A stretch of DNA of 64,000 nt, taken from positions 736,001 to 800,000 of the forward strand of contig CAVRAG010000007.1 of assembly GCA_963718895.1 (NCBI GenBank), written 5' to 3'. This DNA is from an uncultured Nitrososphaerota archaeon. Lineage in GTDB: Archaea > Thermoproteota > Nitrososphaeria > Nitrososphaerales > Gagatemarchaeaceae. The notes beneath the pieces are model-generated. The model had not been told where the DNA came from. It made no database searches and worked only from the letters and a program-made list of their open reading frames with translations. Of this stretch, positions 3,763-27,350 are shown piece by piece (position 1 is the first letter of the stretch; each line of letters opens with the position of its first letter). The position numbers were made by a program, and so were the translations under genes.

Positions 3763-3771
3763 ACGGTTCCC

Positions 3772-7398: not shown

Positions 7399-7709
7399 TC
7401 AGAACGAGACGACCCACGGGAAGAAGTAGAAGGCGAGGAACGCGCCCAGAGCGCCCAGGCTACCCCTACCGGGAACCAGAAGCCGGGCTTCGAGGTCTTG
7501 TGATTGAAGAAGAGCCCCCCGAGCGTTATGCCCGCGAACCCTCCGAGAAGGGCGATGAAGGCGAGGCTCTGTTCGCTCATCCTGTCCAACCCGATCTTGG
7601 CCGCAACCTTGTCGGCGAGCATGGCGCCACCACCGACAAAGGTCATGACGAGGAGCACGTCCTCGAGGACCTGCGGGGAGATCACGGAAGCCAGGTTGGC
7701 GGCAGGCAT
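7399..7709 (-). CDS. DUF1294-family membrane protein, copy 2 (frameshift near 3' end)
   Basis: MLADK..A.IG.DRMSEQSL..GG..G..LGG.FFNHKT.K; the shifted frame ends FYFFPWVVSF* at 7399. Confidence 0.8.
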
Positions 7710-7722
7710 AGGTGTTGACCCC

Positions 7723-7926
7723 CTAGGTGATCTTTGGCACCGGGATGCCGCCCTCGTGCATCTCTATCCGGCACTCGGGGCAGACGAGCTTCTTGAAGAA
7801 CCGGCCCACCTTCTTCTTGGGACAGGTGTCGCAGTAGAGCTTGCGGCAGGACGGGCACTGCCATGCGATCCTCCCGCGGAACCCGCCGACCGCCCTGTTG
7901 CACTGGATACAGTAGCCTCGGACCAA
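7723..7926 (-). CDS. Small 4xCxxC zinc finger, copy 2
   Basis: MVRGYCIQC..CPSC..CDTC..CPEC; TTAAAT box on the minus strand at 7951-7956. Confidence 0.85.
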   Translation of the reverse strand: MVRGYCIQCNRAVGGFRGRIAWQCPSCRKLYCDTCPKKKVGRFFKKLVCPECRIEMHEGGIPVPKIT

Positions 7927-7978
7927 AGCACCATAGAATTCTGAAGGATGATTTAACCCCCAAGCAACCAGGCGATTG

Positions 7979-8194
7979 TCAGACAGCTTTCAGAAGCTTA
8001 GCCTTCACGTCCGGTTTTGTTTCCCTTGGAAGCAAGAGTTCCAGGTCCAGCAGTTCTCCCTTCGCGTCCTCGTCCAGGATCACGTTCTCCGCGAGCGGCT
8101 CGCTGGAGGACACCTTCCCTCTTCTCAGCCGCAGGTAGAGGGCACCCGCCTCTTCATCAAATTCCAGTGGAGCCATACCTTTTTGCGCCCTCAT
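7979..8194 (-). CDS. DUF2283-family putative antitoxin
   Basis: FDEEAGALYLRL...VILDED..G.LL.LE signature. Confidence 0.8.
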   Translation of the reverse strand: MRAQKGMAPLEFDEEAGALYLRLRRGKVSSSEPLAENVILDEDAKGELLDLELLLPRETKPDVKAKLLKAV

Positions 8195-8408
8195 TGTCAG
8201 CTTTCAGAGCCGTTATCACTATTAAGCCTTCATCACTCTCCTCGATGATCACGATGGTGAAGCTGCCATCCAAACGAGACGCGCACGAGGCCTTCCTTCC
8301 CTGCTTTGTGTATCTCGCTTCGAGAGGACGCACGATTGCTTCCCCGACTTCCATCTTGGTTACTCCGCGCTCCAACATCCTCTTCTCGGCGTGAGGGGTG
8401 TACCTCAT
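8157..8408 (-). CDS. DUF4258-family (RelE-like) putative toxin
   Basis: MRYTPHAEKRMLERGV...IVITA signature; overlaps the DUF2283 gene. Confidence 0.8.
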   Translation of the reverse strand: MRYTPHAEKRMLERGVTKMEVGEAIVRPLEARYTKQGRKASCASRLDGSFTIVIIEESDEGLIVITALKADNEGAKRYGSTGI

Positions 8409-8463
8409 CGGTCACAGCTCGAAACCTCATTGGCCCCTAAAACCGTCATTGCAATGAGGAGAC

Positions 8464-8557
8464 GCCCAAAGACGCGCAAATGACTCTCCCGCCCTAAACG
8501 AGAGACGATACACAGGAATTACCTGCGCCGCAAGACATGACCACGAGCGCAGGGGTC
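8464..8557 (+). ncRNA. Dispersed structured RNA element, copy A (5' domain only)
   Basis: Shares ATGACTCTC..GAGACGATACACAGGAATTACCTG..CACGAGCGCA.GGGTC with copy E; CTAAAA box at 8437. Confidence 0.6.
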
Positions 8558-8813
8558 CTTCACTGAACCCACCCCGACACGCCTGTTGCGCTGGGAGCAA
8601 GCCTCTGACCAAACCAAGATGGAATCTTGAGGCGCAATTCAACCGCAAACCGGCGGAGCATCGTGGGACGATCTCTCCACCCTGGTTTGTCAGCGATGAC
8701 GAGAGGTCCCTTGAGCCGGGATACCCACTATCTTCTCTCCGAGTTTGGTCAGGACGAGCACGCCTAGCTCATCATTCGGCTCAGCGCGGTCCTCCGCCGA
8801 ATCGCGCTTTGGC

Positions 8814-9671
8814 TCAGGTCCTCTGCCCGGAAGGAGGCCGCCAGTCGCTGCATCTGGGGCATATCAGGAAGAACTTCGATCCGCTGACGATCTTGAACGA
8901 TGGAGCGCTGCATGTCGGGCATTGGGCCTCTTCCTCCTTCCAGTGCACCTCGAGGCCACGTTCCTTGAGCCAGTCAACGACCGAGAGCACCGTTGGGTCG
9001 GTCAGCATCTCGACGGGTAAGTCTTCGTAGTACTCGACCGCCAGCTTCAGCCTCTCGAACTGGCTCGGAGAGATTTGCCCGTTGAGCGAGTGCCTTGCGA
9101 AGACCGCCGTAAGGCGCTTCCGCTCATCCCCGTCCGCGAGCTTCGTGTCGACGCCGGAGAGCAGGACAATGCACACGAGCGAAACAGCGGCGATGAGCCC
9201 GTAAGGGCTCTGGAGAAACAGTATTGGCAGTCCGACGTAAGGGATGGTGACGGCCGGCACGCCCAGGACGCTGGTCGAGTCTGTGACGAACGGGTCCGGG
9301 GACAGGTTGTTGTCTCCCTTCGTATCGTAGTACGTCACCCCGTTGGCCTCCTGACCGACCCCCACGACCCTGTGGATCACGACAGGCTTCAGGAACGAGT
9401 CGAGGGCCGGAATCCCAGATGAACCCTGAACGAAGACGATGATGCTGCCGTTCGCGATCTGTCCCCGCGGGGCGGTGAAGAAGATGAGCTCACCGTTCTG
9501 GAGCTTGGGGTACATGCTGTTCCCCTGTACGATAGCGACCGGATAGGTGGTCGTCCCGGCGATGAACGGAAGTGCGGCGAGAGTGACAAGTAGGCCGAGA
9601 CTGAGCATGAACAGCAAGCGCCGTTTGTCGAATTTCATTTCCAAAGTCTCCGTTGTGACCATTCTTCTCAT
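8814..9671 (-). CDS. Signal peptidase I (S26, SipW/Sec11-like) with C-terminal Zn-ribbon extension
   Basis: GNSMYP (catalytic Ser), VIHRV (His), TKGDNN..PD, IPYVG; C-terminal CPTC..CPRC. Confidence 0.9.
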   Translation of the reverse strand: MRRMVTTETLEMKFDKRRLLFMLSLGLLVTLAALPFIAGTTTYPVAIVQGNSMYPKLQNGELIFFTAPRGQIANGSIIVFVQGSSGIPALDSFLKPVVIHRVVGVGQEANGVTYYDTKGDNNLSPDPFVTDSTSVLGVPAVTIPYVGLPILFLQSPYGLIAAVSLVCIVLLSGVDTKLADGDERKRLTAVFARHSLNGQISPSQFERLKLAVEYYEDLPVEMLTDPTVLSVVDWLKERGLEVHWKEEEAQCPTCSAPSFKIVSGSKFFLICPRCSDWRPPSGQRT

Positions 9672-11617
9672 GCCCTGTATGTATAAGCCACCTCGAACAG
9701 CGTGGGTTTCGGTGAGCCCCAGAAGATTGTTAGAGCTGCCGACGCTGGCCCGGTTATCACGACCTCGATGTAGCCCGAGGCCGGTACTGTCCCAGCAGAA
9801 GAGGACACAGAGAGAGGCTGGTAGAGCGCGGTCGTCGCCGCGGGCGAATTACTGGCCATCGTGGACTGGACTGTGCCGGCCGAGTCCGTCGTGTAGTACG
9901 AGACTGTGACCGTCTGGGGTGCTGGCATTATCGCGTCGCACAGGGCGCCCCAGTACGTCGTAGACTTCCCGAATGCGCACGATGAAGAGGACAAAGAGGA
10001 GGTCGTTGCAACGTACTCTACAGCGTTCGAATAGCCTACTCCCGCCTCGGTGGCGACGAGAGTGGCCTTTGTTACTCCGATGGTTCCAGCCGTCTCCGTG
10101 ACCGATGTATGGGTGCCAAAGAGCGAGAAGACGAAGTCCGTCTCCGAGACCGTCGAGACGCTAGAGACCGTCGGCGCGGCTGAGGTGGAACTGCAGGAGG
10201 AGACTGCGGCGTCCGGCAGACCCGAGGCGGGGTCGAAGGGAGTGATAGTGTCCGCGCCGGAGACCGCGATGGCGATTCCCGAAGCAGCGGTCGTGGTCGG
10301 AGTCGACGCGAGTTGGACCGTTATCGTGTCCGACGAGAGGGCGGAGGACGCTATCCCGTACCACTCGACCTCCGTGCTCTCCTGCGCGCCGGTGCACACC
10401 GTGTAGGAGTGCCGAGCAGACGACTGCCACGTTATCGCGCTGGCAGAGTCTGATATCGAGGAGACCGCGACGGAGGAACCAGAGTGGTAGGTGACTATCG
10501 AGAGCACGACCACATCGTTGGCATCAGTCGTCGTTAACGACGAAAGGGCGAACGAGGTCCCAGAGGACCAAGTCCCTTCTGCGCTTCCATCCACCGCTGG
10601 CGCGGGCATGTCTGCGAAGAGCTGCAACGACAGTGAGGATGCGGGAATAGACTTTGCTGAAGCGAATTGAGGCGACCAGAGATACATGCTCTCCCCCGCG
10701 GGGAGGGTGAAGCTGGCACTTGAGACGACCGCGTCGCAGATGTCGGCCCAATAGGTCGTTGTCTTCCCGAAGGTGCACGTGATGCCGGACTCGACCGTTG
10801 AGACGACGCTGTACTCCACGGCGAGGGAGTATCCCCTTCCCGCTACGGTACTCAGAAGCGTCGCGGCCGTGGCGCCGATGTTCCCGGCGCTCTCCGTCTT
10901 CGACGTGTAACCGCCGAAGAACGCGATTACGAAGTCGTTGGCGTTCGCGGTCGAGATGGTGTCGCTCGGGTCCGCTGCGGTGGACGAGCAGTCGTTCCCT
11001 ATTGTGCCCCCGTTGGCGGAGGTGTCGATCGGGCTGGATGTGGCTGCGCCGGAGATTGCGACGGCCTCGGCCGAGGCAGCGGTGGGAGTCGCGCTGAGTG
11101 TGATGGTTATCGTATCCGAGGAGAGGACGCCGGAGGCTACACCGTACCACTGAATGTCAGTGGTCTCTTGTGTAGAACTGCAGTCAGTGTACTCGGTCAG
11201 GAAACTGGTCCGCCAGCTTACCGCACCGGCGGTGTCTGTGACGGAGGAGACCGTTATCTCGCTGGCCGACTTGTATGTTACCACGTTGAGGAGAATCACG
11301 TCCGACGTATGGGCCGTGGTCACCGACGTTATGGTAAACGAGGTAGCCGAGGACCACGTACCCGTCCAGTTACCGTCCGAGGAGAGCACTGAGGTCCTGG
11401 TGGGCTCGGTGGTCTGAGTGTCGACGGTGAGGCAGGGCAAGGTGCACCCGGCCACAGGTGCGTTGACGTTCTCGTAGTAAGGGTTCAGAAAGGTGCCTGC
11501 GAAGTCGGCGCCGGTGCTCTTCAGAATCGTCACGTTGGCCGCGGCAGCGACAATGAGCATCGTTGTGGCTGCGCCAGACAGAAGGAGCAGCCGCCACTTC
11601 AGGTTCTGCGAACCCAA
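9668..11617 (-). CDS. Large secreted Ser/Thr-rich protein with a duplicated ~220-aa beta-rich domain
   Basis: N-terminal signal; two repeats (GTWSS.TSF..TT....DV..L..VTY..WYG.AS..LSSDTIT..FGK.TTYW...CDA) with conserved Cys. Confidence 0.8.
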   Translation of the reverse strand: MGSQNLKWRLLLLSGAATTMLIVAAAANVTILKSTGADFAGTFLNPYYENVNAPVAGCTLPCLTVDTQTTEPTRTSVLSSDGNWTGTWSSATSFTITSVTTAHTSDVILLNVVTYKSASEITVSSVTDTAGAVSWRTSFLTEYTDCSSTQETTDIQWYGVASGVLSSDTITITLSATPTAASAEAVAISGAATSSPIDTSANGGTIGNDCSSTAADPSDTISTANANDFVIAFFGGYTSKTESAGNIGATAATLLSTVAGRGYSLAVEYSVVSTVESGITCTFGKTTTYWADICDAVVSSASFTLPAGESMYLWSPQFASAKSIPASSLSLQLFADMPAPAVDGSAEGTWSSGTSFALSSLTTTDANDVVVLSIVTYHSGSSVAVSSISDSASAITWQSSARHSYTVCTGAQESTEVEWYGIASSALSSDTITVQLASTPTTTAASGIAIAVSGADTITPFDPASGLPDAAVSSCSSTSAAPTVSSVSTVSETDFVFSLFGTHTSVTETAGTIGVTKATLVATEAGVGYSNAVEYVATTSSLSSSSCAFGKSTTYWGALCDAIMPAPQTVTVSYYTTDSAGTVQSTMASNSPAATTALYQPLSVSSSAGTVPASGYIEVVITGPASAALTIFWGSPKPTLFEVAYTYRA

Positions 11618-11651
11618 CCGATCACCCCTGGGCTCACTTCCCGGCCCGCTC

Positions 11652-12164
11652 CTAGGCGACCGTTATCTGGACCGCCGCGGGGGCCGTCCACGTCACTGCG
11701 CCCGTGTCCCAGAGGACGGTCATCGTCTGTCCGTTCACGATTGAAGCCGGGCTCGTGAACTGGAAGGTGTAGAGGGTGCTCGTGACGCCGCTGACGGCGG
11801 TGCTCGTGACTGTGATTGTGTAGAGGTAGCTCGTCGCCGCGCCCGTCTGGATCGTTATCGTCCAGGCCACTTCCCAGTCGCCCGCCACGAGAGCGTTCAC
11901 GTACGTCGGGGCCAGGTTAGCCCACGCAAGCCCGCTGACCGATGCAGATTGGGGGGCCTCGACGACGTTGTAGCTGATCGCGGAGGCGAGGAAGTAGCCG
12001 TTGTCGACGACGTACTCTCCTTGGTATCCCACGTTGTTGCTGGTGTTGATGGTCACCGATGCCGCGTAAGCGCCTATGGAGCCGACCATGATGAGTGAGA
12101 GAACGAAGAGGTAGACCAGCCTGACGCTCCTGTGCATGAAAGGTACCTTGATGAATCTCGTCAT
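11652..12164 (-). CDS. Secreted 170-aa filament/pilin-like subunit, paralogue 2
   Basis: Signal peptide ending IGAYAA; beta-rich; highly similar to 12189-12701. Confidence 0.8.
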   Translation of the reverse strand: MTRFIKVPFMHRSVRLVYLFVLSLIMVGSIGAYAASVTINTSNNVGYQGEYVVDNGYFLASAISYNVVEAPQSASVSGLAWANLAPTYVNALVAGDWEVAWTITIQTGAATSYLYTITVTSTAVSGVTSTLYTFQFTSPASIVNGQTMTVLWDTGAVTWTAPAAVQITVA

Positions 12165-12188
12165 CTCCCCAAGACCTCCTCCAAGCTC

Positions 12189-12701
12189 CTAGGCAACCGC
12201 CACTTGAACCGCGGCCGGGGCCGTCCATGTCACAGCTCCCGTGTCCCAGAGAATCGTCATCGTCTGCGTGGGGGTTATCGTCGCGAGGGTCGTGAACTGG
12301 AACTGGTACAACTGAGTGGTCGTTCCAGTGGCTGAAGTGCTGGTCACGGTGATAATGTACGTGTGGCTGGGTGTCGCTCCCGCGTTGAGCGTGATGGTCC
12401 AGAGGACCTCCCAGTCGCCTGGTACAAGGGCGTTCACGTAGGCCGTGCCACTGGGCGCCCATGTCATTGGCTGGGTCGTCAGCGCCTGCGCGCCCTCGAC
12501 GACGTTGTAGGTAATGGCAGAGGCGGTGAAGTAGCCGTTGTCGACGACGTACTCTCCTTGGTATCCCGCGTTGTTGCTAGTGTTGATGGTCACCGATGCC
12601 GCGTAAGCGCCAATCGATCCGATGAGTATGAGCGAAAAGACAGCCACATAGAGCAGCCTTATGCTCCTTCTGACGAAAGGAATCCTTATCATCTTTGCCA
12701 T
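12189..12701 (-). CDS. Secreted 170-aa filament/pilin-like subunit, paralogue 1
   Basis: Same architecture; first gene of an operon that ends in the S26 peptidase. Confidence 0.8.
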   Translation of the reverse strand: MAKMIRIPFVRRSIRLLYVAVFSLILIGSIGAYAASVTINTSNNAGYQGEYVVDNGYFTASAITYNVVEGAQALTTQPMTWAPSGTAYVNALVPGDWEVLWTITLNAGATPSHTYIITVTSTSATGTTTQLYQFQFTTLATITPTQTMTILWDTGAVTWTAPAAVQVAVA

Positions 12702-12889
12702 GATTCTCTCACTTTCTCCTGATGTTTTTTCTTGTGTTATGAGCAGGGGTTACGATTCCCGTCTGATAACCAGAACAGTTTGGCGGGTGAACCCGATATA
12801 AAGTCGTCTAAAAATATCCCAAAAGTCCACCATGTTATCAATTTCTCTTAACATTTCGTCGTTTGAGCCCGTTCGGTTCGTTAGTCCGC

Positions 12890-13510
12890 ATGGCGTTCAC
12901 TGACCTAACGGACGAGGAGTGGGAGGACGTCAGGGGCCTCATCCGGCCACGAGCCAAGAAAGGCAGACCGAGAGGAGACGAAAGACGAACCCTGAACGCA
13001 ATCCTGTTCGTCCTGCAGGAGAAGATACCCTGGAACTACCTCCCGAGCGAGTACGGCAACGACTCGACCCCCAACAGGAGGTTGAAAGAGTGGGAGGAGG
13101 ACGGGACGTGGGACCGAATAGCGGACGCCCTGGGGCTCGTCGAGGACTCCGACCTCATCGGGGAACCCGGCAGCGGAGACTCGGGTCTCGATTCTGGACT
13201 GTGGGACGTCTCGCAGGACTACCCTGCATCGGGTCGAGGGGAACTCCTCTGTCCGGCTCGACCAAGGATCACCATAGCCCGTGGAGATGCACCCGGAGAG
13301 GCTATCGGCGGCATGACAATCATCAGCTGCACGGAGGCAGACACCTGTCTTCCCATGTTTCACGGACCCGTGGGGGGAACGCGTCAGGAATGCATCCCGG
13401 CGACCTGCTTCTTGTTCGTTGAGGGAGAAGATGGGTTCCCGGGGTGCGCACTCGAAGTTCAGCTGGTGAGTTCGACACGCCGCAGGGCTGGACGACCTTC
13501 CCGGCCCTGA
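12890..13510 (+). CDS. IS5-family transposase N-terminal (DUF4096-like) domain fused to an unrelated Cys-rich tail; no DDE domain
   Basis: DLTDEEW...GRP..D.R..LNAILFVL....W..LP.EYG..ST...R...W...G.W. Confidence 0.7.
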   Translation: MAFTDLTDEEWEDVRGLIRPRAKKGRPRGDERRTLNAILFVLQEKIPWNYLPSEYGNDSTPNRRLKEWEEDGTWDRIADALGLVEDSDLIGEPGSGDSGLDSGLWDVSQDYPASGRGELLCPARPRITIARGDAPGEAIGGMTIISCTEADTCLPMFHGPVGGTRQECIPATCFLFVEGEDGFPGCALEVQLVSSTRRRAGRPSRP

Positions 13511-13896
13511 ACTGGGGTACCGAGGTTCAGGCCCACGGGCCCTCGAATTCGATGAGACCTCAGCTGACAAGCCGGGCCGAGTCCTGGCGCAGCTGGAGAC
13601 AAAGGGGCTTGCGACGGACCCGAGGCATCTTCACAGGATGCACGCACCTGTCCGATGGCTATCCCCTCCTGACCAAGGACCGGAGGCATCTGGACCGGAT
13701 ACCGGACCTCCTCGTCCTCACTCGGCGGACCTAGACTCCGGATGGGGCCTGGCTCGGGGTCTCCCTGTCGACCGTGCCTTCTTTGGGCTCGCCACGCCCC
13801 TTGTTGAGGGCGGCTGACCTAGCAAAGACCGGTCCTCGAGTCTGGACCGAGAGAAGGAAAGGTTGGCGGTTAAATTGACTGTCAGCGTGCTTCTAC

Positions 13897-14115
13897 ACCC
13901 GATTGCGCGGACATGAGTCTCCTCCTCGAACTGGAGATGAGCACAGGAATTACCTGAGCCGCAAAAACGTGATCGCGAGCGCAAGGGTCTTCCACGGCGA
14001 GGCGGCCAACGGGTCGAAGAGGAAGACATCACGTCCTCTGACTTTCAAGCGAATGCCGTCCCCGTGTATCGGGAGGGCCAACGAGCGAATGTCTCTTGAG
14101 CAGGCGGACGAACAA
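13897..14115 (+). ncRNA. Dispersed structured RNA element, copy B
   Basis: Near-identical core to copies C and E; TTAAAT box at 13870. Confidence 0.7.
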
Positions 14116-14369
14116 CGAATGGACAGGACCAAGCCTTGTGATTTCGGGGGGCTGAGCGTTTCCAGAAATTCCTGCAAGACTTGCATAGAATAGGACGCTT
14201 ATCCAAGATATGTAACCCAGCGTCCAAGTCCTCTTAGACGGAAATACGGAGCTTTGCAGAGGAGGTTGTGTACTATGTATCACTAACTGGGCGAATATCG
14301 ACCTTGTCGCCCCTATGTGAACGTCCTCGTTATCTACTCTCTTGCGCCGTTGAGGACCGTGGATTGAGG

Positions 14370-14702
14370 ATGACAACGGAAGAAAACCTCCGTGAAGCAA
14401 CGGGACAATCTCCAGAGACCATCATCTGCGCGGGATGCGACGAACCTGTTCAGGAGCTCCTGCAAGAGGATTCCCTGCGTCTGAGGAGGACGAACATGGA
14501 GGAAGTCCTCCCTCCGGTGAGGGCTTTCGAATGCCCCCGATGTGAAGCCATAATCTATTCAGACGAATTCACGTCCGGCAGATTTGTGCCTCCCCAGTTC
14601 AGGCGTCTGATAGTGCCGGTTGCTCGGCCCATGAGCGGGAGCCACTTCTCGCCGCAGACCGAGGTAGCCGTTCTGGGTGCGTCGGAGCCGTCTAGGAGTT
14701 GA
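14370..14702 (+). CDS. Small Zn-ribbon protein
   Basis: CAGC ... CPRC pairs. Confidence 0.5.
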   Translation: MTTEENLREATGQSPETIICAGCDEPVQELLQEDSLRLRRTNMEEVLPPVRAFECPRCEAIIYSDEFTSGRFVPPQFRRLIVPVARPMSGSHFSPQTEVAVLGASEPSRS

Positions 14703-14742
14703 TGGGAACGAAGAGAATCGGTGCGGTCCGGAAGGACGCCTC

Positions 14743-15390
14743 TTACAGCGTCATTTTGACCATCACCGATGATTCGGTGGCATCGATGGTCGGGATAATC
14801 TTGAAGAGCGTGCGGAAGTCCGTGTCCAGGGCGGTTTTCAGGTAGGCTGTGTAGTGTTGACCAAAATCATGGGTCACAATAAGCGTGACATTGGATCCTT
14901 CCCGCTTGAGCTCTACCTTGATGTCGAGCCCGTACCGGCTCCTCATCTTGAGATATTCGAGGAAGTCGTCCACCCTGACATCCTGGAACCAGAACATCAT
15001 CATGTCCTTCATCAACTGATGCGAGTGCACCCCGGCGAGCTCCTGGAGCCTCTCGGCGTCAACGGCGTTGACCATGTCCTGAAATTGCGCCTTGGGGATC
15101 GTCACGAAGCCAAACCGCTCGGTGACGCTGTCCCAGAGGACGTACTTGTTCAGGACCGATGAGACCAGGGCATTCAGCGCTATACCCTTGTTCGCTGCCA
15201 AGCCCTCGAGCTTCGCCTCCAGCTCTTCCGGGAGCCTGATGGTCCTAAGGACGGTCCTGCTTTTCTTCTGCTCCCGCTTGGCGTCCGGAGAAGAGGTTTC
15301 CAAGTCCTTTAGTTTTTGCACGGGAATCTGTGCCGTATATGTTCCTTTTGACGAAGCTCCCGATTCGACGGTCAGTGAATCCACATTCAT
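14743..15390 (-). CDS. Ribbon-helix-helix putative regulator with C-terminal ligand-binding-like domain
   Basis: RTIRL...L...A...GI.LNALV..VL.KY..WD...RFG pattern typical of Nitrososphaerota hypotheticals; ATGA overlap with the upstream gene. Confidence 0.65.
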   Translation of the reverse strand: MNVDSLTVESGASSKGTYTAQIPVQKLKDLETSSPDAKREQKKSRTVLRTIRLPEELEAKLEGLAANKGIALNALVSSVLNKYVLWDSVTERFGFVTIPKAQFQDMVNAVDAERLQELAGVHSHQLMKDMMMFWFQDVRVDDFLEYLKMRSRYGLDIKVELKREGSNVTLIVTHDFGQHYTAYLKTALDTDFRTLFKIIPTIDATESSVMVKMTL

Positions 15391-15701
15391 GCGGCGATGG
15401 TCGAGACCTTCGACCTCTCGTTCCATTGAATGAGTCGGACGAGTCCGATTAGGAGGAGGGCGAAGGAGACCATGAGCGCCGCACTGAGGATACCGGATGG
15501 GACCTCCTGACCGACGGTGAGAAGGAGGGCGTCTCCGAAGCCGACCAAGGCGATCAGGGCGAACCCCACGACCATGAACTTGAAGAGTTGCTCCATGACA
15601 TCGCCCTTGAACATCTTGATGACGCTGTCAACGCACACGATTCCCACGACGCCAAGGATTCCGAACCCATAGGCGATGGCGACCTGGGTCGTGTCGAGCA
15701 T
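15387..15701 (-). CDS. Small 3-TM membrane protein
   Basis: Three hydrophobic helices; translationally coupled to the RHH gene. Confidence 0.65.
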   Translation of the reverse strand: MLDTTQVAIAYGFGILGVVGIVCVDSVIKMFKGDVMEQLFKFMVVGFALIALVGFGDALLLTVGQEVPSGILSAALMVSFALLLIGLVRLIQWNERSKVSTIAA

Positions 15702-16026
15702 GGACCGTGGGAACGAAAGTATCGGGATTTAGGAAGGAGGTACACTAAGTAGTACCTAGGCGACGAAGATGAGTGTTTTGTCCACCTAGGCAACGGGAGC
15801 GACAGCCTCGTGCATGATTAACAGGGCCGTTAGCAGCTTGCCAGGGCTGTTGTTTCATCAACCAGAGGCCTCGGTGGATGGGACTTCGGGGAGGGGACAC
15901 AGAATCTCGCCCGTGTGGCTGGCTCACCAAGAGAAACCTCCAGGAGGTTCACGTCGCTCATGGTCGTGTCTGTGAATCCTGCGGTATCGAGTGGCGCTTA
16001 AAAATCGCCTTACAGGCTTCGAGGAC

Positions 16027-16250
16027 ACCTGATTGCGCGAAGATGAGTCTCCGGCCTTGAACTGGAGATGAGCACAGGAATTACCTGAGCCGCAAAAACG
16101 TGGTCACGAGCGCAAGGGTCTTCCACGGCGAGGCGGCCAACGGGTCGAAGAGGAAGACATCACGTTCTTTGACATTCCAGCGAACGCCGTCGTGGTGAAA
16201 TCCCGGGAGGACGAACAAGCGCATGTCTGCCTAGACATGCAGACAAACTA
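16027..16250 (+). ncRNA. Dispersed structured RNA element, copy C (weak similarity may extend to ~16392)
   Basis: Near-identical core to copies B and E; TTAAAA box at 15998. Confidence 0.7.
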
Positions 16251-18583: not shown

Positions 18584-18672
18584 TGTCCTGTCCCGCCGGT
18601 CAACATCGATACTTATGCCTGTTTCGACGGGCGGGCTCCTGCACTTATAATGAGAGCTGTGCGCTCCTCCGC

Positions 18673-19480
18673 ATGGGAATCTCGAAGAAGGTAGCCCTCG
18701 TCACGGGGGCGGCGTCCGGGATTGGTGAAGGAATAGCTCTCCATCTCGCAAGAGAGGGCGCCTCGGTCATAGTGGCAGACGTGGACGAGGTCAAGGGCGA
18801 GAGAGTCGCCGCACGAATCTCGAAGGGGAAGGGCGATGCCGTCTTCATCAGAGTGGATGTCTCCAATCAGGGTGAGGTCAAGGCGGCGCTTGCGAAGTGC
18901 AGGAAGAAGTTCGGCGGCCTCGACATCCTCGTAAACAACGCCGGCATCAACGTGGGCTTGAGCAGCGGTCCGAATCCTACAGGGTGCCCGAAGAGATATG
19001 GATCGTACCATCGATACCAACCTGAAGGGAACGTTCCTCTGCACAAAGTATTCTGTGCCGCTCATGAGGAAGAGGCAAGGCGGGTCGATAATCAACATAT
19101 CTTCGATGCTGGGGCTCTACGCCATCCCAGGGGCGTCCTCTACTGCGCCTCCAAGGGAGGATCATATCGCTCACGCGGGCGACAGCCATGGACTCCGCGA
19201 GGTTCAAGATAAGGGCAAACTGCATCTGCCCTGGTGCGATCAAGACGCCGGCCTTCGGAAGGGCGTTCACCGACCCCACCGAGCTGCGCCGTCTCTTTGC
19301 GATCTATGAGAAAGGGTATCCGGCCAAGCGCATAGGGGAACCAAAGGACATCGCGTCTTTGGTGGCCTATCTGGCGGATGAGGCCTCCTCGTTCATCACT
19401 GGGTCCGTCATAACAATCGACGGCGGCATGCACGCCCAGTACGGCGAAGCGCTGCTGAAGATGAGGATTGACGGGATAAT
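18673..19480 (+). CDS. Short-chain dehydrogenase/reductase (frameshifted; 3' end approximate)
   Basis: TGAASGIG, NNAG, YCASKGG, ICPG, ITGSVITIDGG spread over three frames. Confidence 0.85.
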
Positions 19481-20553
19481 CTATCGCTCTCGCTGCCCGG
19501 ATGGAGCCACTTGTACTTGTACTCCTGACCGCTCATCGAGGATTTCTGCACTAGGAGGCCGAGGAGCTCAACGAGGTTGGCGTGCTGCGTCATGGGCACG
19601 TCGTCCGCTCCCGGGTCGAGCAGGCCGGGACCGCCGTTTATGGCACCCGCCGCGGCGCAGTAGGCCTGCGTCTGCAACTCAATCTGTCTGTCGTGCAAGA
19701 CCGCGGGTTTCTGCAGCAGCGCCGAAAGGCAGGCCTCTATGCCGTAGGCGCCCCAGTTCGAGATCGTCGCGGTGACCAGCACCTCCGTCGCGATGTTGGA
19801 GGCCGAGCCTCCCTGGCAAGGGCACTTGCACTCCCCCGAGAACGGGACGTACTTCAGGACCGAGTCTCTTATGAGACCACAACCTAGCTCGTTCCCCCCA
19901 TCCCCTATCCCGATAGTCAGCGTGCCCTGAGCCGTAGCCGAGAGAAACATGCTGTCGGGTTTGGCGAGGTACTTTGAGATGTTTATCCCAGTCAGCCCGT
20001 GATATTCGCCCTTGACGTTCTGCGACGGTCTCTCAATCGCAATGAGCGCGGAGGGGTTGAGTTCCTTAAGCATTCGTTCCCCGGCGGCGGCCGCCTGGTT
20101 GGATTCCGTAGTGAATTCGACGATAGATGCGAGTCTCGGAAGCCTCAGCACCTCGTCTATAGAGCCCACGTTCAGACCCGAGCCAGCGAGTGCGGCCTTG
20201 GTTATCCCCACGTTGAAAGAATCCGTCACAAGCACCACCTTGGCGTCCAGCCCGAGTACCAGGGCGCGCGCAAGGGTCGCTGCGCCGACGGGGCCATCCT
20301 GCTCTCCGACGGTGAACCACGGCGGACAGGCGAACCCAGTCGTGATTATCACCACATCATTCGCCTTGACACATTGCGCCAGCCGTTGGGCCGCGAGCAT
20401 CGTAATCGGAAAGTTACCCTGCTTCTCCCTCGCCGCACCATAGAGTTTGTCGATAACGCCGCGGCACGAGATGTCCGCTGTGATCAGTCGATCGACGGTA
20501 TTGCCCAGCACCTGGTGGTGTTGCGACACGGAGTGGGAATCGCTTTGGTCCAT
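19480..20553 (-). CDS. D-glutamate cyclase-like (DUF4392) protein (3' end approximate)
   Basis: TTGF, EQDGP.GA, IAIERP, IGIGDGGNELG, ISNWGAYG motifs. Confidence 0.82.
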
Positions 20554-20621
20554 CTTGATCTCCACCTCACGGCCTCTTCCATCTCGCAACATCAACCTTT
20601 GGTCCGAGGTCGAGTGCCCTT

Positions 20622-22530
20622 CTATCCGAATGTGACGGTATTGAAGAGCGGGGAGGTGTCCGCGCCCTGGAGCATCGGGTCTAGGTAGAAGTTCTTGACT
20701 ACGCCTGTCTTCCAGACGAGTGAACCGCTTCCCTGCCAGAGTTTCACGACGGCCACCCACGCGTATGGGGCATCTGCGTTGATCTGCTCTTGCGCCTTGG
20801 TGCAGAGCGCGGCTATCTGGGTCTGGTTCGCGTCCGTGGTGAAGGCGTTCACGCAGGCCTGGACGGTTGGAGTGGAGTAGGCCGCAAAATCTCCATAGAG
20901 TGAGCTGTTGCTGACAAAGGATATCCAGTCATCCGCCGGGGTCAGCGCGTTCAGCGTCCACGTGGGAGCCCCGTTCAAGATGTTAATCTGCCCAATCTCC
21001 TGGGCGTTCTGAACGTTTGTGGTGTAGCTGCCGAAGAGCGAGGTGTACTCGCCGAAGGTCTCAGTGACGATGTTGGTTTGTATCCCTATGTTGGAAAGGT
21101 CCCCCTGGGATCAGCTGCGCCTCATCGGTGCACGAACCGCAGTTCGCAAGTATCCTGATGGCGAGCGTGGGCATTGTCTTTACGTCAGCGGCCGCAAGGT
21201 AGTGCTGCGCCAGCGTCACGTTGTAGGAGTATGGTTGCGCACCACCCAGGTCGTAGAAACTCCCGAAGAGCGGAGCCTCCGGACCGACGAATTGCGACCC
21301 TTGTCCGAGCCAGACCTTCTGGATTATCTGGCTGTAGTTGATCGTGCTGGACTATTGCGAGTCTCACATCTGTGATATTGGTAGGATAGCTCTGCGTATT
21401 CAGGTCGACGAAGTTGACCTGGGCTCCGAGCCCGCTCGTCGCGACGTAGGAGTACTCGTTAGGGTTCGCGTCACAAGGTTCCAGTCCTGCGCCATTATCA
21501 TAGCAACCTGCGCCGTCCCTGTGCTGAGGTCTGTGTATCGTGTGACATCATCGGGCTTGTAGTTTATGACGACGTTCTTGACGTGGCCCGGATCGAACAT
21601 GGGCTGCGCTGCTATCTGCGCTGGTGTGAGGCTGTCCCCCCAGTATGTCGGATTCTGCGCGAAGGTCACGAAATTATTCTCAGACACCTGTGTGACGACG
21701 TACGGGCCTGTACCGGGGATTGGATGCTGGTTGAAAGCCGTGTTGTAGTTTCCTGGTGTACCGAAGCCACCATTGTTGAGTACGTACTGCGCGTCAAAGA
21801 CCTGACTCATCCAGGGCACCAGCAGTCCGAGGAACCACTGGAAGGGTGCTTGCAGGTGGAAGACTATCTGGTTGGGACCGGTAACATAAATCGGCCAATG
21901 GTTGTTCTCCATCACGCTCAGGGCCGCCGACGAGGGCGAGGAGAGTCCTGACTTCGTCAGAGTTGAGAGCGTCGACGAACCGAAGTTCACGCTACTCATG
22001 TTGAAGACATCGTAGGAGTTGAACCAGGAGGAGGCATTCCCGGATACGTAGTAGAGCCCGTAGAGTTCAGCCCATACCTGATATGCGTTGAAGGGGTCAC
22101 CATTGGAGAAGGTCACTCCTTGCCTCAGATTGAGGGTGTAGGTCTGTCCGCCGTCCGAGACGGTCCAGTTGTCGGCCAGGCCAGGCATGTATTGGATACT
22201 ACCAGTCTGGTACTCGGCCGTGAGGTTGACAGCGACTAGCGGCTGGTACACAGTGATTTCCTGCCAGTCAGGATAAGGCGCCAAGTTGACTGTGTCAAGC
22301 GCGTTCAGGTCGCCAGTCGGCCAAATCCAGTCGTCAATGGTGAGCGTCTGTGGCGCAGACGCGCTAGAGCTGCTCGAGGCTCCCTGGGAAGATGAGGAAG
22401 GGGACGAAGATGGACTCGACAGCGAGGCAGCGTAATAGATACCGACCGCGGCTACTACAATTATGACAATGAGGGCCAGTGCAATCATCGCTCGGCCCAC
22501 GGCGATTCGACTTTCGGACCCAGCAATCAA
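20622..22530 (-). CDS. ABC transporter peptide-binding protein (SBP family 5), frameshifted
   Basis: N-terminal TM plus Ser linker; PGLA.NW.VS.G..YT..LR.GV.FS.G.PF.A; GTGPY. Confidence 0.85.
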
Positions 22531-22759
22531 ACGGCCTGGACTTTGGCCATTGTGTCTTAAGTCTTTCGAGAAAGCAGTCTGCGAAGCACTTTCGACAGGG
22601 TCATAATCACGAAATCGGCAGCCAAGAAACCTTGGATGCTCACTTAGTCTAGGCTTGCGGGGACCCAGAGGACCTCAACTTCAGGGTCGTTCCGTTTGGA
22701 GCGGAGACCGGTTCGGGACATCAAATGATGACGCATTGAGGCTCCAGACTCCTCGACGG

Positions 22760-24269
22760 TCAATCACGGGCTGCGGATACGACGGCGATCTTCTCTCCGA
22801 GCTTCGTGAGAACGAGAAGGCTCCCCGACATCTCAGCTATTGCAAAGCTACCATGTACCATCTGCTTCAACCGTTTGTTGGAGTAACCCTGCTGGGAGAG
22901 CCTCTTCCTCGGGACCTTGCCTCCTGAATTGTGGATGAGCTTGGCCGTGTCCCTAGCCCAGGCCGGCAATTTGTCGTAGACCTTCCAGGCCGAATCACCG
23001 TCAGGAACCCCTTCCAGTGAGATTGGAGGTGTTTTCGGACTCCCTACTATTGGGTGATTCTGATTTGGCAGATTTTGCGTCGGGGCGAATAGGAAACTGT
23101 GCTCCGGGAGGCCCACCATGCACCCCACCGGAATGTCAGTACTGGCGTCGTTGAGCTGGACCAGGCACTCTCCCACCTCCAGCTTGCGAAGGTCTGATGC
23201 GAACTTGTCCGCCTCCAACCTGCTCACCATGTAGTTCAGCGCGAGGTCGACGTCCTTGCCGCTGGTCATCGAGTGGCAGACTATGGTGTTCGAGTTGGAG
23301 ATGATGTCCTCGCTGACTTGTGTCGGCCGCGTTGCCATGACGACCAGCCCCATCCCGTACTTCCTCAGCTCGGTGGCGTACCTCTCGAGGATCCCCTCGT
23401 AGTCTCGCCTGGCGGGAGCAATGTGGTGCGCCTCGTCGACCATGAGCACGAACCTGAGCGCCTTGGTCCACCCGAGCCTCTTGCCGCGGGTGATGAGGAG
23501 CTTGCAGAGGACCTGGGAGACCATGTTCCTCGCCTCGTCGGACTCCAGCGGGCCGAGGTTGACGATGCGCAGGCCCGGCGCGAAGAGCTCGGACTCGTCC
23601 AGCGGTGGCGCGTCGGTGTCGAAGACCCGCGCCAGGGAGCCGCTCGCCAGCGGCCTGAGCCGGGAGACCACAGCCTCGTTCCCCTCGAGCCAGCCCTTGA
23701 CCTTGGTCCGGGACTCCTCGCCCTGCGCCCTGAGCTCCGAGAGGACATCGGAGAGCCGGGAGGTGTCGGCCCCGTAGCAAGACTTCAGGGCCTCGCCGAG
23801 GGCGCGCTCCTGGTACGGGGTGAAGGTGATGCCCCTGAAGGAGCTGCCGACGTAGTGGTGCATCAGGGATATGGCGCGCTCGACGTCGTCGTCGCTGTTG
23901 TCGGACCTGCGGGCGAACGGGGAGAGCGTGAGGTTGGTCCCGGGCGTGTAGACGGTCGCGCTCGGGAGAGAGGCTAGTGGTGAATGGGCGAACTCGCCGG
24001 TCCGGTCGAGGACGAGGACCGAGATGCCGTTCATCGCGGTCGAGCTCCCTGGCAATCACCATGCCCGTACCGCTCTTGCCGCTGCCGGTCCTGCCGAAGA
24101 TGCACATGTGGCGGGTGAGGCTGTCGACGGGGATGGTAACCGGGGGTCTCTCCGGCGATTGCCCGCGTTGAAGACCGTAGGTGGATGCGTCTCCTGGCGC
24201 GTCGACGCGACAACCGAGGCGGATCTCACGTCTCCCGGCGGGCGGCGATTGCTGATTCTGAAGGGGCAT
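22760..24269 (-). CDS. HerA/DUF87-family ATPase with C-terminal wHTH-like tail (frameshift near 24040)
   Basis: Walker A HMCIFGRTGSGKS, VLDRTGEF, Walker B MVDEAHH, ELRKYG motif. Confidence 0.85.
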
Positions 24270-24285
24270 GGAGACTGGCTCACTC

Positions 24286-24603
24286 TCAGAGGTTCACGAC
24301 ACCGGGGAAGAAGTAGAGCACGAGGAACGTGAGCCAGAGCAGGCCCGATGCGCATATCGTGACCCAGAAGTATGCCTTGGTGGTCTTGTGGTGGAAGAAG
24401 AGCCCGCCGAGTATCACGCCTGCGACCCCGCCGGCGAGGGCGATGTGCGCGAGGCTGCGCTCGCTTATCCTGTCGAACCCGATTCGGGCGGAAGTCTTGT
24501 CGGCGAGCATGGCGGCTCCGCCGAGTAGGCTCCAGACCAGGAACCACTCACCGAGAAGCCGCTCGGGGATCATGGAAGCGAGGTTGACGGGGAGCATTGC
24601 CAT
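24286..24603 (-). CDS. DUF1294-family membrane protein, copy 3
   Basis: MLADK..RISERSL..GG..G..LGG.FFHHKT.K. Confidence 0.85.
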   Translation of the reverse strand: MAMLPVNLASMIPERLLGEWFLVWSLLGGAAMLADKTSARIGFDRISERSLAHIALAGGVAGVILGGLFFHHKTTKAYFWVTICASGLLWLTFLVLYFFPGVVNL

Positions 24604-24607
24604 CGCC

Positions 24608-24811
24608 CTAGGCGGTCTTGGGGACCGGGATGCCGCCTTCGTGCATCTCTATCCGGCACTCGGGACAGACGAGCTTCTTGAATAAGCGCCCCACCTTCTT
24701 CTTAGGGCAGGTGTCGCAGTAGAGCTTCCGGCAGCTAGGACACTGCCAAGCGATCCTCCCGCGAAACCCGCCGACCTCCTTGTTGCACTGGATGCAGAAT
24801 CCTCGGACTAA
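24608..24811 (-). CDS. Small 4xCxxC zinc finger, copy 3 (start reads TTA instead of TTG)
   Basis: Manual translation xVRGFCIQCNKEVGGFRGRIAWQCPSCRKLYCDTCPKKKVGRLFKKLVCPEC..; same 204-nt length as copy 2; TTAAAT box at 24836-24841. Confidence 0.8.
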   Translation of the reverse strand, partial: LVRGFCIQCNKEVGGFRGRIAWQCPSCRKLYCDTCPKKKVGRLFKKLVCPECRIEMHEGGIPVPKTA

Positions 24812-24862
24812 AGTGCCCTATGATCAGGAACAAAGATTTAACGACCAAGGACACCTTCGAGA

Positions 24863-26921
24863 TTACGCTTGAGAAGAACTTGCAACTCCCTTTTCGACAA
24901 CACTCAGGGGAGGAAAGGCTCTACTCAAGAGGGGTCCTATTGACTTGTCCAAGGTTCGGGGGTTGGTTTCAAGGAATTTGGTGATGAATGCATGAGCAAT
25001 CAACGGCTTCTTTTCAACACCCTCCCTTCCCTTTATGTACTCGGAAACATCCTTGTATAGGGAACTGTCGAGTTTTTGGATAAAATCCTCCAAATTCTTG
25101 GAGAAGAAGAACACTTGATTGGTCAAATCGTCTATTCCATCATTTCTTACAATGGAGTAGGATTCGCCATCGTCAGAGTACTTGGCAGCGAGCTTTTCTT
25201 AGCGTGTTATCATCATGGTTGTCTCCATCGGCCAAAATCGTAAATGGAATGCCAATGTTGTTTAGAACCCGAGAGTACTTCCCGAAGTTGCCGTTGCTTC
25301 CTACATCTACTATGATGTTCTCTCTCTTGTCAATCTCCATGTCATAGTGCCTCGCCGCAATGTCCAGGAATTCCCGATCGGCCTCTCCCTCGCACATGAC
25401 TATCCTGTTCGCGAAGAATACTCTTGTGTCGATTTGGTATGATAGCTTGTACCGATCCTCGTCTTCAAAATGGAGAGCAGCATTCAGTTGGGTAGCGATA
25501 CTCTTCGCACCGGTTCTTCTAACGTAGAAGAGATTCGCGTTGAAGTCGAATATCAGATTGTGAACCAACTTGGGAGAGTGCGTTGCCACAATAATCTGGC
25601 TCTTCGTTGCAACTAACTTATCCATTAGAGCCTTCATCTGTGGAGGATGGAGATTGACAGCGGGCTCGTCCAGCAATATCACAGAATCTTCTACCCCGAT
25701 CGCCGCGGCCAAGAGAAAAAGCGATTCTGCCAAACCTGCTCCAACACGGTCCAGCTCGAATTGCTTCGAATTCGTTGAATCAGTTACAATGATGTATGTG
25801 TGGTGTGGAACCTGAGGTATGTTTCGTTGTTGAAAGTTTTCTTGACCGAGACTCACGTATCTGGGCAGTACATCGAAACTCAAGGAAGGGAATAGATCCT
25901 GGAAAGATTCCCTTATTGCGCGAAATCTCTTCCTCTGCTCAAGAATGTTGGACTCTTTCAGGCTAAACAGAAACTGGCCAAGATTCCACCCGTCAGCTTC
26001 GAGTCGATTTGTGTACTGTAGAGGTTCGTCTGCCGAGGCTGCCTGAGTGGCAACTGGTGTTTGGGCCACATGGTCAGCTTCGACTGTTGCCTTGCCGAAT
26101 ATCGTGCCTCCGCTTGTGAATATTATCTTGTTCCGCAGAATTGAACCGAGAATTGAAGAGAACGTAATCTGGGAGTTCTGACTTGGCGGAAATCCAGCTG
26201 AAATCAAGACTTGCTGGAACATCCTTCGATGATCCTCCGAGGCATTTGTCAAATATTGATCCTGAATGTCTTGGATTGTAAAGTAGGTCGAATCCTCGAC
26301 AAAGACTTTGTGTGAAGCGGCTTGGGGATCTGCGGACAGACTGATGCCATCCAGGAGACCTGCAAGATTGCTTTCGGGTTGCTTACCTTTGAACCCATTC
26401 TGCATCGAATCTCGAACATCATCCACCACATAGATCGTCCCCGTCCCATTGGGAGCGTGGAATCGTACGCCTAAGTCTATCAGTTCGAGTTCAAACACAT
26501 TATCCCGAGTAGTTGGAAAGTAGCCCAAGGGCCAACCCAGTGTGAGCCGAGCCCTTCTGCAAAGCTCGACGAGACGGTCGAAATTCTTGTAGTCGTAAAC
26601 ATAGGTCCTTTCCCCTGCGGCATCTCTTACTCGATAGACTCTGAGGAAGTCGAGCAGAGTCTTGGCCTCACTATTTGAGAACACCAACTCGGCTGAGAGC
26701 ACTGGAGGCTTGTTCGAGAATACTTCGTCCTCTGACGGCCTCTTGGAGGACGGAGGGAGGCTCTCCGCGAAGAGACGGACTATTCGGAGGAGATTTGACT
26801 TCCCGGAGTTGTTTGGTCCGACAATCACGTTTGACTTGCTAAGCGAGAGGCGTGTGGGCGGCTGCGAGTCGCCATCATACGAGTAAAGGCCTTGCACGGT
26901 CAATTCCTTGAGCTCCACCAT
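24863..26921 (-). CDS. OLD-family ABC-ATPase/TOPRIM nuclease (frameshift near 25170)
   Basis: GPNNSGKS, LLDEP..LHP, ATHS, then TOPRIM-like CEGEAD and ADGD; lower GC than flanks. Confidence 0.8.
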
Positions 26922-27069
26922 GGATTTTACCTCAATTGATTAGAGAATATCGCTTCTCTTAAGGTCTAGTCGATTAGTCTTGGAATGCATCAAGAAGACA
27001 ATCCCGAACAGGCCGGATGCTTCTAGCAAATGCCATTGGTGCTTAAATGCGCTACCAAACTGAGTTTTC

Positions 27070-27240
27070 ACCCTACGACACGCAAATGACTCTCCCGCCC
27101 TAAACCAGAGACGATACGTGGAGTTGCCTGCGCTGGAAGAACGCAGTCTGAGTGTCGAGGGTTGCTCCGCGGAAGGCGAGCCAACAGGTCCGAAGAGGAA
27201 GACTTCACCACGGATCTTTGACTTTCCAGCGAATGCCGTA
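27070..27240 (+). ncRNA. Dispersed structured RNA element, copy D (most divergent; compensatory changes)
   Basis: ACCCT-A-CGACAC pairs with GTGTCG-AGGGT where copies B/C have ACCY..TTGCGC/GCGCAA-GGGT; TTAAAT box at 27043. Confidence 0.65.
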
Positions 27241-27350
27241 CCGTTAACCAGAGAGGGCTCGTTAACCGCGCCCAGTGAAACTTCGACTCAGGCAACACAA
27301 CTCCTATTAGTCAAAGACTAGATTTCTTCTGCGTTGAGAATCTCACAAAC

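Follow-up and report, generated by a model that had tools for sequence, protein, structure and literature searches.

A zinc-finger operon and a structured RNA gene flanking a variably filled gap in a Nitrososphaerota archaeon

Bacteria and their phages are known to have sites at which variable cargo is enclosed by conserved flanks, among them defence-gene hotspots such as those at variable loci in P2/P4-like prophages or in chromosomal defence islands. To our knowledge, very little has been described of how accessory or defence genes are acquired in the soil and peat archaeal lineage considered here. We analyzed a 64,000-nucleotide (nt) stretch of DNA from an uncultured Nitrososphaerota archaeon of the Gagatemarchaeaceae (G000:C7:736001-800000, hereafter the window), which belongs to a 3.13 Mb genome assembly of 11 contigs that is 80.5% complete. 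At two loci in the window a small operon encoding a zinc-finger (ZnF) protein and a DUF1294 protein is transcribed away from the gene for a structured RNA of ~185 nt, and the space between them holds genes that differ from one locus to the other. The ZnF-DUF1294(-HerA) operon facing the RNA(-LAGLIDADG) is a conserved divergent unit, with a gap that occurs naturally in empty and in differently filled states. It is reasonably probable that the two loci are diverged, partly decayed copies of this archaeal gene-pair unit and that its gap is receptive to insertion.

The unit resembles a defence hotspot in its conserved flanks, its differing cargo (an OLD nuclease and a putative toxin-antitoxin pair) and its empty alleles. 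Unlike the P2/P4-type hotspots it is archaeal and has no phage or satellite context, its flanks are the promoter of the ZnF operon and an RNA gene, part of its cargo is unrelated to defence (an MFS-Usp transporter), and no integrase was found with it. As in the attC arrays of integrons, direct repeats of a structure-conserved element of 100-190 nt part variable genes beside a conserved platform. However, no IntI-type recombinase is present in the scanned open reading frames (ORFs) of the window (1-64 kb) and the 20 kb to its left, and the segments between the repeats are 2-12 kb long with genes on both strands. An A/T box of its own and several helices that contain G-U pairs make the repeat read as an RNA rather than as a folded DNA hairpin of the attC type.

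The divergent gene pair and its gap

An initial annotation of the window had reported the same geometry twice, namely DUF1294, ZnF and a TTAAAT promoter box on the minus strand, then minus-strand cargo, then an A/T box from which the RNA is read on the plus strand. Both instances are present, at 7399-8658 and 24286-27266 (Table 1). The 30-nt spacing between ZnF box and start codon is exact, as are the distances of 23 and 22 nt from that box to the stop of the cargo, which are those of a DUF2283 gene (7979) and of an ORF of 87 amino acids (aa; 24863). The box before the first RNA (8470) is CTAAAA, not TTAAAT. The TTAAAT hexamer is not enriched in the window (9 seen against 8.1 expected), and five of the nine are at homologous promoter positions. 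Homology between the two copies ends 8 nt past the ZnF box (7964/24849) and resumes ~10 nt before the RNA box (8428/27034). Because ZnF1 and ZnF2 are 85% identical in nucleotide sequence and the two RNAs, c8465 and c27071, are 88% identical over their first 57 nt, the two blocks are sisters that now carry different cargo.

The first gap, of 543 nt, is filled as annotated by DUF4258 and DUF2283 genes (7979-8408), which overlap by 38 nt and whose products both score above the Pfam cut-offs. We take them to be a toxin-antitoxin (TA) pair of putative activity; a PADLOC search of the pair gave no match. The DUF4258 gene starts 34 nt from the CTAAAA/TTTTAG box at 8437-8442. In the relative G007 the RNA, the TA pair and the ZnF start occur in the same order at 78% nucleotide identity, and the TA filling is therefore old. 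The DUF2283 homologue in the same position there is 82% identical.

The second gap, of 2264 nt, is filled with an OLD-family nuclease gene, an allele seen in the window only. The initial annotation had assigned the whole of 24863-26921 to this gene. The assignment holds for 25173-26921, whose product has an N-terminal ABC-type ATPase domain (AAA_21, 71.6 bits; AAA_15, 49.2 bits) and a C-terminal TOPRIM domain (OLD-like_TOPRIM, 51.1 bits, residues 502-567; PADLOC Old, 91.5 bits), but 24863-25126 is a separate frame. The OLD ORF of 582 aa ends 47 nt before this 87-aa ORF and the homologue in G071 has 679 aa; the short ORF is possibly the shifted tail of OLD. However, it shows no similarity to the C-terminus of the 679-aa homologue. 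The guanine-plus-cytosine (GC) content of OLD, correctly described as low, is 0.42-0.52 against ~0.62 in the flanks, and the drop falls exactly where homology between the two copies ends. OLD homologues were found neither in the 22 genomes of the same genus nor in the other loci fetched, and only two of the 100 relatives searched gave distant matches.

Searches for the RNA yielded 61 hits (28 in species genomes, the window included, and 33 in metagenome contigs), 51 of which have at least 400 nt of upstream sequence and were assessed for the ZnF module. At ten of these hits the RNA 5' end is 137-146 nt from a ZnF start, at seven more the distance is 0.5-2.5 kb, and at a further two DUF1294 alone lies at ~400-490 nt. 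One locus (L134) is ambiguous and was not counted. The ten short intervals are empty alleles of the kind that had been predicted, with two A/T boxes ~85 nt apart (L170, L136, L169, L156, L133, L135, L126, L070, L068 and L069). The filled alleles of relatives, when tabulated, carry different genes. Besides the TA pair and OLD, the gap holds a 470-aa ORF in G007 (L067, 1556 nt), ORFs of 151 and 138 aa in L121 and L166, which look like the same sequence (1225 nt), and an MFS-Usp transporter gene in L136 and L070 (2443 nt; genomes given as G039 and L136). The 470-aa protein has no Pfam or PADLOC match; among named language-model clusters the nearest to it are HEPN_Apea-like (0.90), no more than a lead.

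The ZnF and RNA families had been regarded as two halves of one element. The head-to-head link does recur in other genomes, but it is partial. Upstream sequence could be assessed for 18 modules, three from the window and 15 from other loci, and about eight of these have an RNA within 2.5 kb, while about 19 of the 51 RNA hits have a module. RNA model R1, applied to 34 further ZnF loci (+/-6 kb), gave nothing that was counted (a single match, E 0.87), and most of these loci hold a distant ZnF paralogue. With filters off, the same model found nothing between the ZnF and LAGLIDADG genes of L092.

The window contains three minus-strand copies of the ZnF-DUF1294(-HerA) operon, with intergenic distances of 4-16 nt. 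The third (ZnF and DUF1294 at 3461-3972) is absent from the initial annotation. The first ZnF gene is probably leaderless. A DUF87/HerA ATPase core is present in the third gene of the operon; the HerA region of copy 2 is 78% identical in nucleotide sequence to an uninterrupted ZnF-DUF1294-HerA operon in L087, and the homologue in L068 matches DUF87 (60.8 bits), HerA_C (29.7 bits) and PADLOC HerA (76.4 bits). DUF1294 copy 1 has a frame change near the C-terminus in the assembly, where the alignment shows the tail leaving frame. Where the start codon of ZnF2 would be expected by homology there is a TTA, preceded at a distance of three codons by an in-frame TAG.

Matches to the ZnF query occur in 28 of 60 family genomes, but most are a distant paralogue (50-63% identity) with no adjoining DUF1294, judged to be a separate orthologue group and left out of the module counts. 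Such matches number about one per genome in most relatives, and the paralogue may be the ancestral housekeeping gene of the family. A fourth, more distant paralogue (56% identity) is present in the source genome within a 164-aa frame at G000:C7:567259-567420. On several contigs (L169, L156) the ZnF gene adjoining the RNA shifts frame at an identical place, codon 24/25, and only the first 23 ZnF codons were found in L170 and L136. Either a real, recurrent break point or a sequencing error common to these contigs could be the cause.

The structured RNA and the downstream LAGLIDADG gene

The genome has multiplied the unit: three ZnF modules and five RNA copies, all of the latter in direct orientation on the plus strand, lie inside 36 kb before the elongation factor 2 (EF-2) gene. 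No further RNA copy was found in the rest of the source genome. An A/T box precedes each copy in the window by ~30 nt (three TTAAAT, one TTAAAAAT and one CTAAAA). Copy c39498 is intact and forms all 45 pairs of the consensus structure, although the model was built in part from this copy. Distant homologues have 1-4 unpaired pairs. Copy c8465 is homologous to the others for only about its first 95 nt, its 3' part being 35-57% identical to them, and we therefore regard it as a relic.

The secondary structure shows covariation among 29 model-aligned hits from the window and relatives. In the alignment 85.8% of cells pair, compared with 37-44% when the partners are slid by 1-3 columns; fitting the alignment to the model favours the structure, but the slid controls share this bias and still score far lower. 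Compensatory changes on both sides are found in 36 of the 45 pairs, and none of 500 shuffles reaches the observed values. The frequent G-U pairs point to the plus strand. No part of the window matches Rfam 15 at the gathering score, and E-value searches of Rfam with c39498 and seven short metagenome contigs returned only chance-level matches to long non-coding RNAs. A scan for tRNA and tmRNA genes found none. The repeat thus represents a new structured RNA family outside Rfam. Metatranscriptome contigs of 174-182 nt span ~39507-39690, close to the predicted 39503-39692; coming from three runs of one peat study, they are a weak hint that the RNA exists as a discrete transcript.

Model R1 detected the RNA in 12 of 60 other family genomes. 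A shorter 5'-domain model with a poor consensus structure (R2, 14 pairs) detected it in 11 of 96 genomes, none of them new (genus g1, 6/22; g2, 1/6; g4, 2/3; g6, 1/3; g8, 1/1; g9, 0/55). This distribution marks the RNA as an accessory feature. The 21-nt RNA pattern also occurs in 26 bacterial records (L189-L218), mostly from Bacteroidota and Rhodothermota, where ~4 would be expected by chance on a rough estimate; the bacterial matches (Bacteroidota and others) do not match the RNA model. Half of the metagenome loci with the pattern (32 of 64) gave no RNA hit, and these may belong with the bacterial matches.

The intact RNA is most often accompanied by a downstream LAGLIDADG gene, with EF-2 further on, and both had been missed by the initial annotation. 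Of 53 hits with enough downstream sequence, 14 have the LAGLIDADG gene behind the RNA at a distance of 31-258 nt (counted to the first residue that aligns), and in nine loci EF-2 follows on the same strand at 1.6-10.5 kb. In the window the gene follows c39498, with a Shine-Dalgarno-like GGAG 8 nt before its ATG and no A/T box between RNA and ORF. The RNA may be the 5' leader of the endonuclease mRNA, or a product processed from it. None of the strongly truncated RNA copies (at least 25 pairs missing) has the gene behind it. Among metagenome hits the number of unpaired pairs does not differ clearly between LAGLIDADG-linked and solo copies (3-6 and 0-9).

As judged from its modelled structure, the gene product is LAGLIDADG endonuclease-like, with cleavage and homing as predicted activities. 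The AF2 model (mean pLDDT 89.7, pTM 0.88) has a double alpha-beta-beta-alpha-beta-beta-alpha fold, and a Foldseek search with it gave 12 PDB matches at E <= 0.001, all of them classed as LAGLIDADG enzymes of inteins or introns; intein homing endonucleases, I-DmoI and WhiA are among the proteins recovered. In 35 sequences D186 and E281 are invariant, and G182, Y183, G185 and G282 are invariant or nearly so; the two LAGLIDADG motifs were assigned by eye. Against the LAGLIDADG_3 cut-off of 22.5 bits in Pfam, homologue P0002 scores 26.2 bits, the window protein 19.0 and P0003 19.5. Functional annotations of the 37 homologues found do not go beyond "hypothetical" or "LAGLIDADG family", and those that are named bear the label Thaumarchaeota. 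The gene belongs to a new free-standing LAGLIDADG family with no characterised member among these homologues. Its distribution among relatives is patchy, and no allele was seen that shows clean presence or absence at a defined target site. A literature search limited to listings and abstracts gave nothing relevant on LAGLIDADG with Thaumarchaeota, DUF4258 with DUF2283 or DUF1294 with HerA.

Like free-standing homing endonucleases and LAGLIDADG enzymes such as I-DmoI and PI-SceI, the predicted protein has a double-LAGLIDADG fold with both acidic motif residues conserved, and the gene is patchy and lies beside a highly conserved gene, EF-2. Unlike them, it lies outside any intron or intein, the protein has an extra N-terminal domain of ~150 aa, and its endonuclease activity is predicted from the fold. 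A precedent for the pairing with an RNA is the lariat-capping (GIR1) ribozyme, which lies upstream of a homing endonuclease ORF in twin-ribozyme introns. Here too a structured RNA of ~190 nt is found directly 5' of a homing-endonuclease-like ORF, presumably on the same transcript. However, the RNA has no Rfam match and no surrounding group I intron, the protein is of the LAGLIDADG and not the His-Cys box type, and the RNA also occurs alone. It is conceivable, but improbable, that the 185-nt RNA functions together with the LAGLIDADG protein instead of being a passive leader, acting as a ribozyme or protective mRNA cap or as a bound RNA that guides or licenses cleavage. If this were true, the ZnF-DUF1294-HerA operon, the RNA and the LAGLIDADG gene would work as one system, making and processing DNA breaks at its own locus and so capturing foreign genes, an archaeal gene-capture platform without a recombinase.

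Several other genes were observed between the RNA and EF-2 in relatives. G007 has a group II intron-type reverse transcriptase (RVT_1, GIIM, HNH; L067 5250-7049) and a Fic-domain ORF beside the RNA. Schlafen (SLFN)-group-3-type helicases with PADLOC matches to PDC-S41, Nhi and AbiO are present in L073 (894-2771) and L084 (3267-5159).

Routes of gene acquisition

In the reading we favour, one side of the unit is a probably leaderless ZnF-DUF1294(-HerA-like ATPase) operon and the other is the RNA, which has its own A/T box and is read away from that operon; in the intact unit the RNA is followed by the LAGLIDADG gene with no promoter between them, and the whole stands upstream of EF-2. The ~85-nt gap between the A/T boxes would tolerate insertion and may have received foreign DNA repeatedly. 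Cargo could enter or be exchanged by recombination with the ZnF and RNA flanks serving as homology arms, and breaks made by the LAGLIDADG protein would possibly stimulate this recombination. A gap so sharply defined between two promoters, with natural empty and filled alleles, is new and can be used for testing insertion or exchange. If capture is driven by the endonuclease or the RNA, genes would be gained here by a new route.

The direct RNA copies may also act as recombination breakpoints. Upstream, the second RNA of G007 adjoins the TA pair, as c8465 does in the window; downstream it is followed, like c13895, by a Zn-ribbon ORF (at 14268-14702 in the window) and a HicB-like ORF. Since it joins the upstream flank of one window copy to the downstream flank of another, it suggests that recombination took place at RNA copies. 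The window accordingly holds 5.2 kb more between two RNA copies than G007, or G007 has lost this DNA.

The initial annotation had proposed that the element inserted or recombined here repeatedly. The differing fillings agree with recurrent change within the gap, but movement of the unit itself is unsupported. No integrase, transposase or recombinase was identified by Pfam in 72 ORFs of the window and 22 ORFs of the 20 kb to its left, a scan that passed over some small ORFs, and no recombinase was found in the scanned ORFs beside the RNA copies of relatives. Target-site duplications and terminal inverted repeats were not found, and direct or inverted repeats at the OLD cargo borders amount to short, chance-like matches. 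No relative turned up among viral contigs when these were searched with the LAGLIDADG alignment and the RNA pattern.

Several observations weigh against a conserved unit with an insertion-receptive gap. No mechanism is visible, as the borders of the cargo lack duplications or inverted repeats and the scanned ORFs lack a recombinase. The copies in the window are degraded: c8465 is truncated, c27071 leaves 11 of 45 pairs unformed, ZnF2 has no canonical start, and HerA-2 and DUF1294-1 contain frame changes. The two RNA copies beside the gaps are the worst preserved in the window, and the units there may be dead. Because low GC content continues past c27071 to ~37 kb, OLD possibly entered within a larger block that already carried an RNA copy, and it may not have been inserted into an existing gap. 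The ten empty alleles trace back to no more than two lineages, which are closely related and are both similar to genus g4 and not to the genus of the window, and they are not ten independent observations. The gap had been called a defence-gene hotspot, which suits OLD and the TA pair, but only these two of the five cargo kinds are defence-like; the MFS-Usp transporter and the unassigned ORFs show that it is not dedicated to defence. No module is present at 32 of the 51 assessable RNA hits, and no RNA is in reach of the modules in window copy 3, L087, L088, L090, L091, L092, L072, L071 (2709-2906), L109 and L118. Finally, the whole region before EF-2 is unstable, and the window copies look like old decaying duplicates within it.

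This instability is the basis of an alternative that we consider unlikely, in which there is no special slot, the ZnF-RNA pair was caught up in segmental duplication and decay in a generally unstable zone before EF-2, and the intervening genes are ordinary products of rearrangement. Upstream of EF-2, four relatives without the RNA share no synteny with the window or with one another, and in three of the four homology begins no more than one base from window position 49964. Fragmented genes are numerous in the window (Hsp70, SDR, MmeI-like, HerA, EF-2), and pieces of the ZnF N-terminus and of HerA are scattered in G007 and L136. However, an unstable zone does not readily explain five fillings in a single ~85-nt gap between promoters, in at least three lineages and with both flanks alignable, nor that four of the five cargo kinds have the strand sense of the ZnF gene, nor that the cargo ends at nearly the same distance from the ZnF box in both window copies. 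Part of the fragmentation may be artificial. EF-2, the sole copy in the genome, is read in at least three frames here but as one ORF of 684-731 aa in relatives, so the assembly probably contains indel errors; these may account for indels in the window, every frameshift in it is doubtful, and pseudogenes cannot be called firmly. That the duplicated geometry itself is an assembly artefact is scarcely credible in spite of these errors, and misassembly was excluded: the two copies are 72-85% identical in a nucleotide repeat comparison within the window, differing at 15-28% of positions, and thus are not a collapsed-repeat artefact, and the same layout occurs in the single-contig relative G007 and in independent metagenome contigs.

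Somewhat less likely than general instability is that the RNA gene serves as an attachment or recombination site in the manner of tRNA genes, with incoming DNA leaving direct full or partial copies behind and the ZnF operon being incidental. As in the integrative elements that target tRNA and tmRNA genes, acquired DNA is flanked by copies of a small RNA gene, full or partial and in direct orientation. The copies are direct in all seven contigs with at least two significant copies (the window, G001:C112, G007, G019:C23, G029:C74, G039:C187 and L136), 5' partial copies exist (c8465, L070 2425-2521, L082 2420-2587, L067 15370-15505 and 142-nt forms in L068, L069, L126 and L135), and the MFS-Usp gene of L070 is bracketed by one full copy and one 5' partial copy. 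The 5.2 kb that separates two copies in the window relative to G007 fits such a process, and defence-like genes (an SLFN-type helicase, a DNA methylase, Fic and OLD) are found near RNA copies in several genomes. In contrast to the known elements, no integrase or recombinase accompanies the RNA in the ORFs scanned, and the partial copies retain the 5' end and promoter with end points that vary. The promoter is part of what is repeated, four of the five copies in the window span the full length and there is no short shared core. The RNA copies are also only 51-92% identical to one another, hence old.

Feature coordinates and neighbouring genes

The coordinates of the features discussed above are collected in Table 1.

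Table 1. Features of the ZnF modules, gap cargo, RNA copies and downstream genes in the window
Feature	Position	Strand	Remarks
ZnF, copy 1	7723..7926	-	67 aa, four CxxC pairs, TTG start at 7926
TTAAAT box of ZnF copy 1	7956-7951	-	30 nt upstream of start
DUF1294, copy 1	7399..7709	-	Pfam DUF1294, 48.8 bits
ZnF, copy 2	24608..24811	-	TTAAAT box at 24841-24836, again 30 nt upstream
DUF1294, copy 2	24286..24603	-	Pfam DUF1294, 54.8 bits
HerA-like ATPase, module copy 2	22760..24269	-	two overlapping frames; Pfam DUF87, 30.1 bits
ZnF, copy 3	3772..3972	-	TTG start; no TTAAAT box, no adjoining RNA
DUF1294, copy 3	3461..3762	-	tblastn match at 3471-3746, 42-45% identical to copies 1 and 2
HerA-like ATPase N-terminal fragment, module copy 3	3164..3445	-	repeat families D13, D17 and D19 match 23997-24232; tblastn with HerA2a residues 2-90
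Cargo 1a, DUF2283 protein	7979..8194	-	Pfam 36.2 bits (cut-off 23)
Cargo 1b, DUF4258 protein	8157..8408	-	Pfam 28.0 bits (cut-off 25)
Cargo 2a, OLD-family nuclease (ABC-type ATPase and TOPRIM)	25173..26921	-	582-aa ORF; Pfam and PADLOC
Cargo 2b, 87-aa ORF	24863..25126	-	other frame than OLD; no Pfam or PADLOC match
RNA c8465	8470..8658	+	cmsearch 149.8 bits; blastn covers query positions 17-108 only; 16/45 pairs unpaired
RNA c13895	13903..14090	+	cmsearch 192.3 bits; TTAAAT at 13870
RNA c16028	16033..16224	+	cmsearch 204 bits
RNA c27071	27076..27266	+	cmsearch 141.4 bits; full length but divergent; 11/45 pairs unpaired; TTAAAT at 27043
RNA c39498	39503..39692	+	intact copy; cmsearch 212.7 bits; TTAAAT at 39470
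Free-standing double-LAGLIDADG endonuclease-like gene	39896..41146	+	416 aa from ATG 39896; follows c39498
94-aa ORF	41143..41427	+	after LAGLIDADG gene; tblastn matches likewise placed in L075, L136, L154 and L156
EF-2	49964..52208	+	conserved anchor downstream of RNA; split across frames in assembly

Several further features of the window were observed around these genes. Directly upstream of the intact RNA c39498, Hsp70 (DnaK) is present in at least two fragments followed by GrpE (37804-39384). Immediately upstream of EF-2 there is a block of low GC content (0.43-0.48, 44000-50000) that contains an archaeal ATPase (PADLOC PDC-S27-like) and fragments of an MmeI/Eco57I-type restriction-modification gene. 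A cluster at 29995-36505 encodes a Ser/Thr kinase with an FHA domain, a PP2C phosphatase, an 874-aa HerA/DUF87 ATPase with PADLOC mad8/HerA matches, which is the second and larger ATPase of this type in the window, and a 281-aa protein without an assigned family. This cluster may be a separate defence or signalling module.

Two tandem duplications were also identified. A gene at 27714-29730 consists of three repeats of ~654 nt (71-75% identical), and its 525-aa product matches no Pfam family. At 11648-12701, a duplication with a period of 537 nt has produced two 170-aa paralogues (72-83% nucleotide identity), which adjoin a 649-aa ORF and an S24/S26-like peptidase gene.

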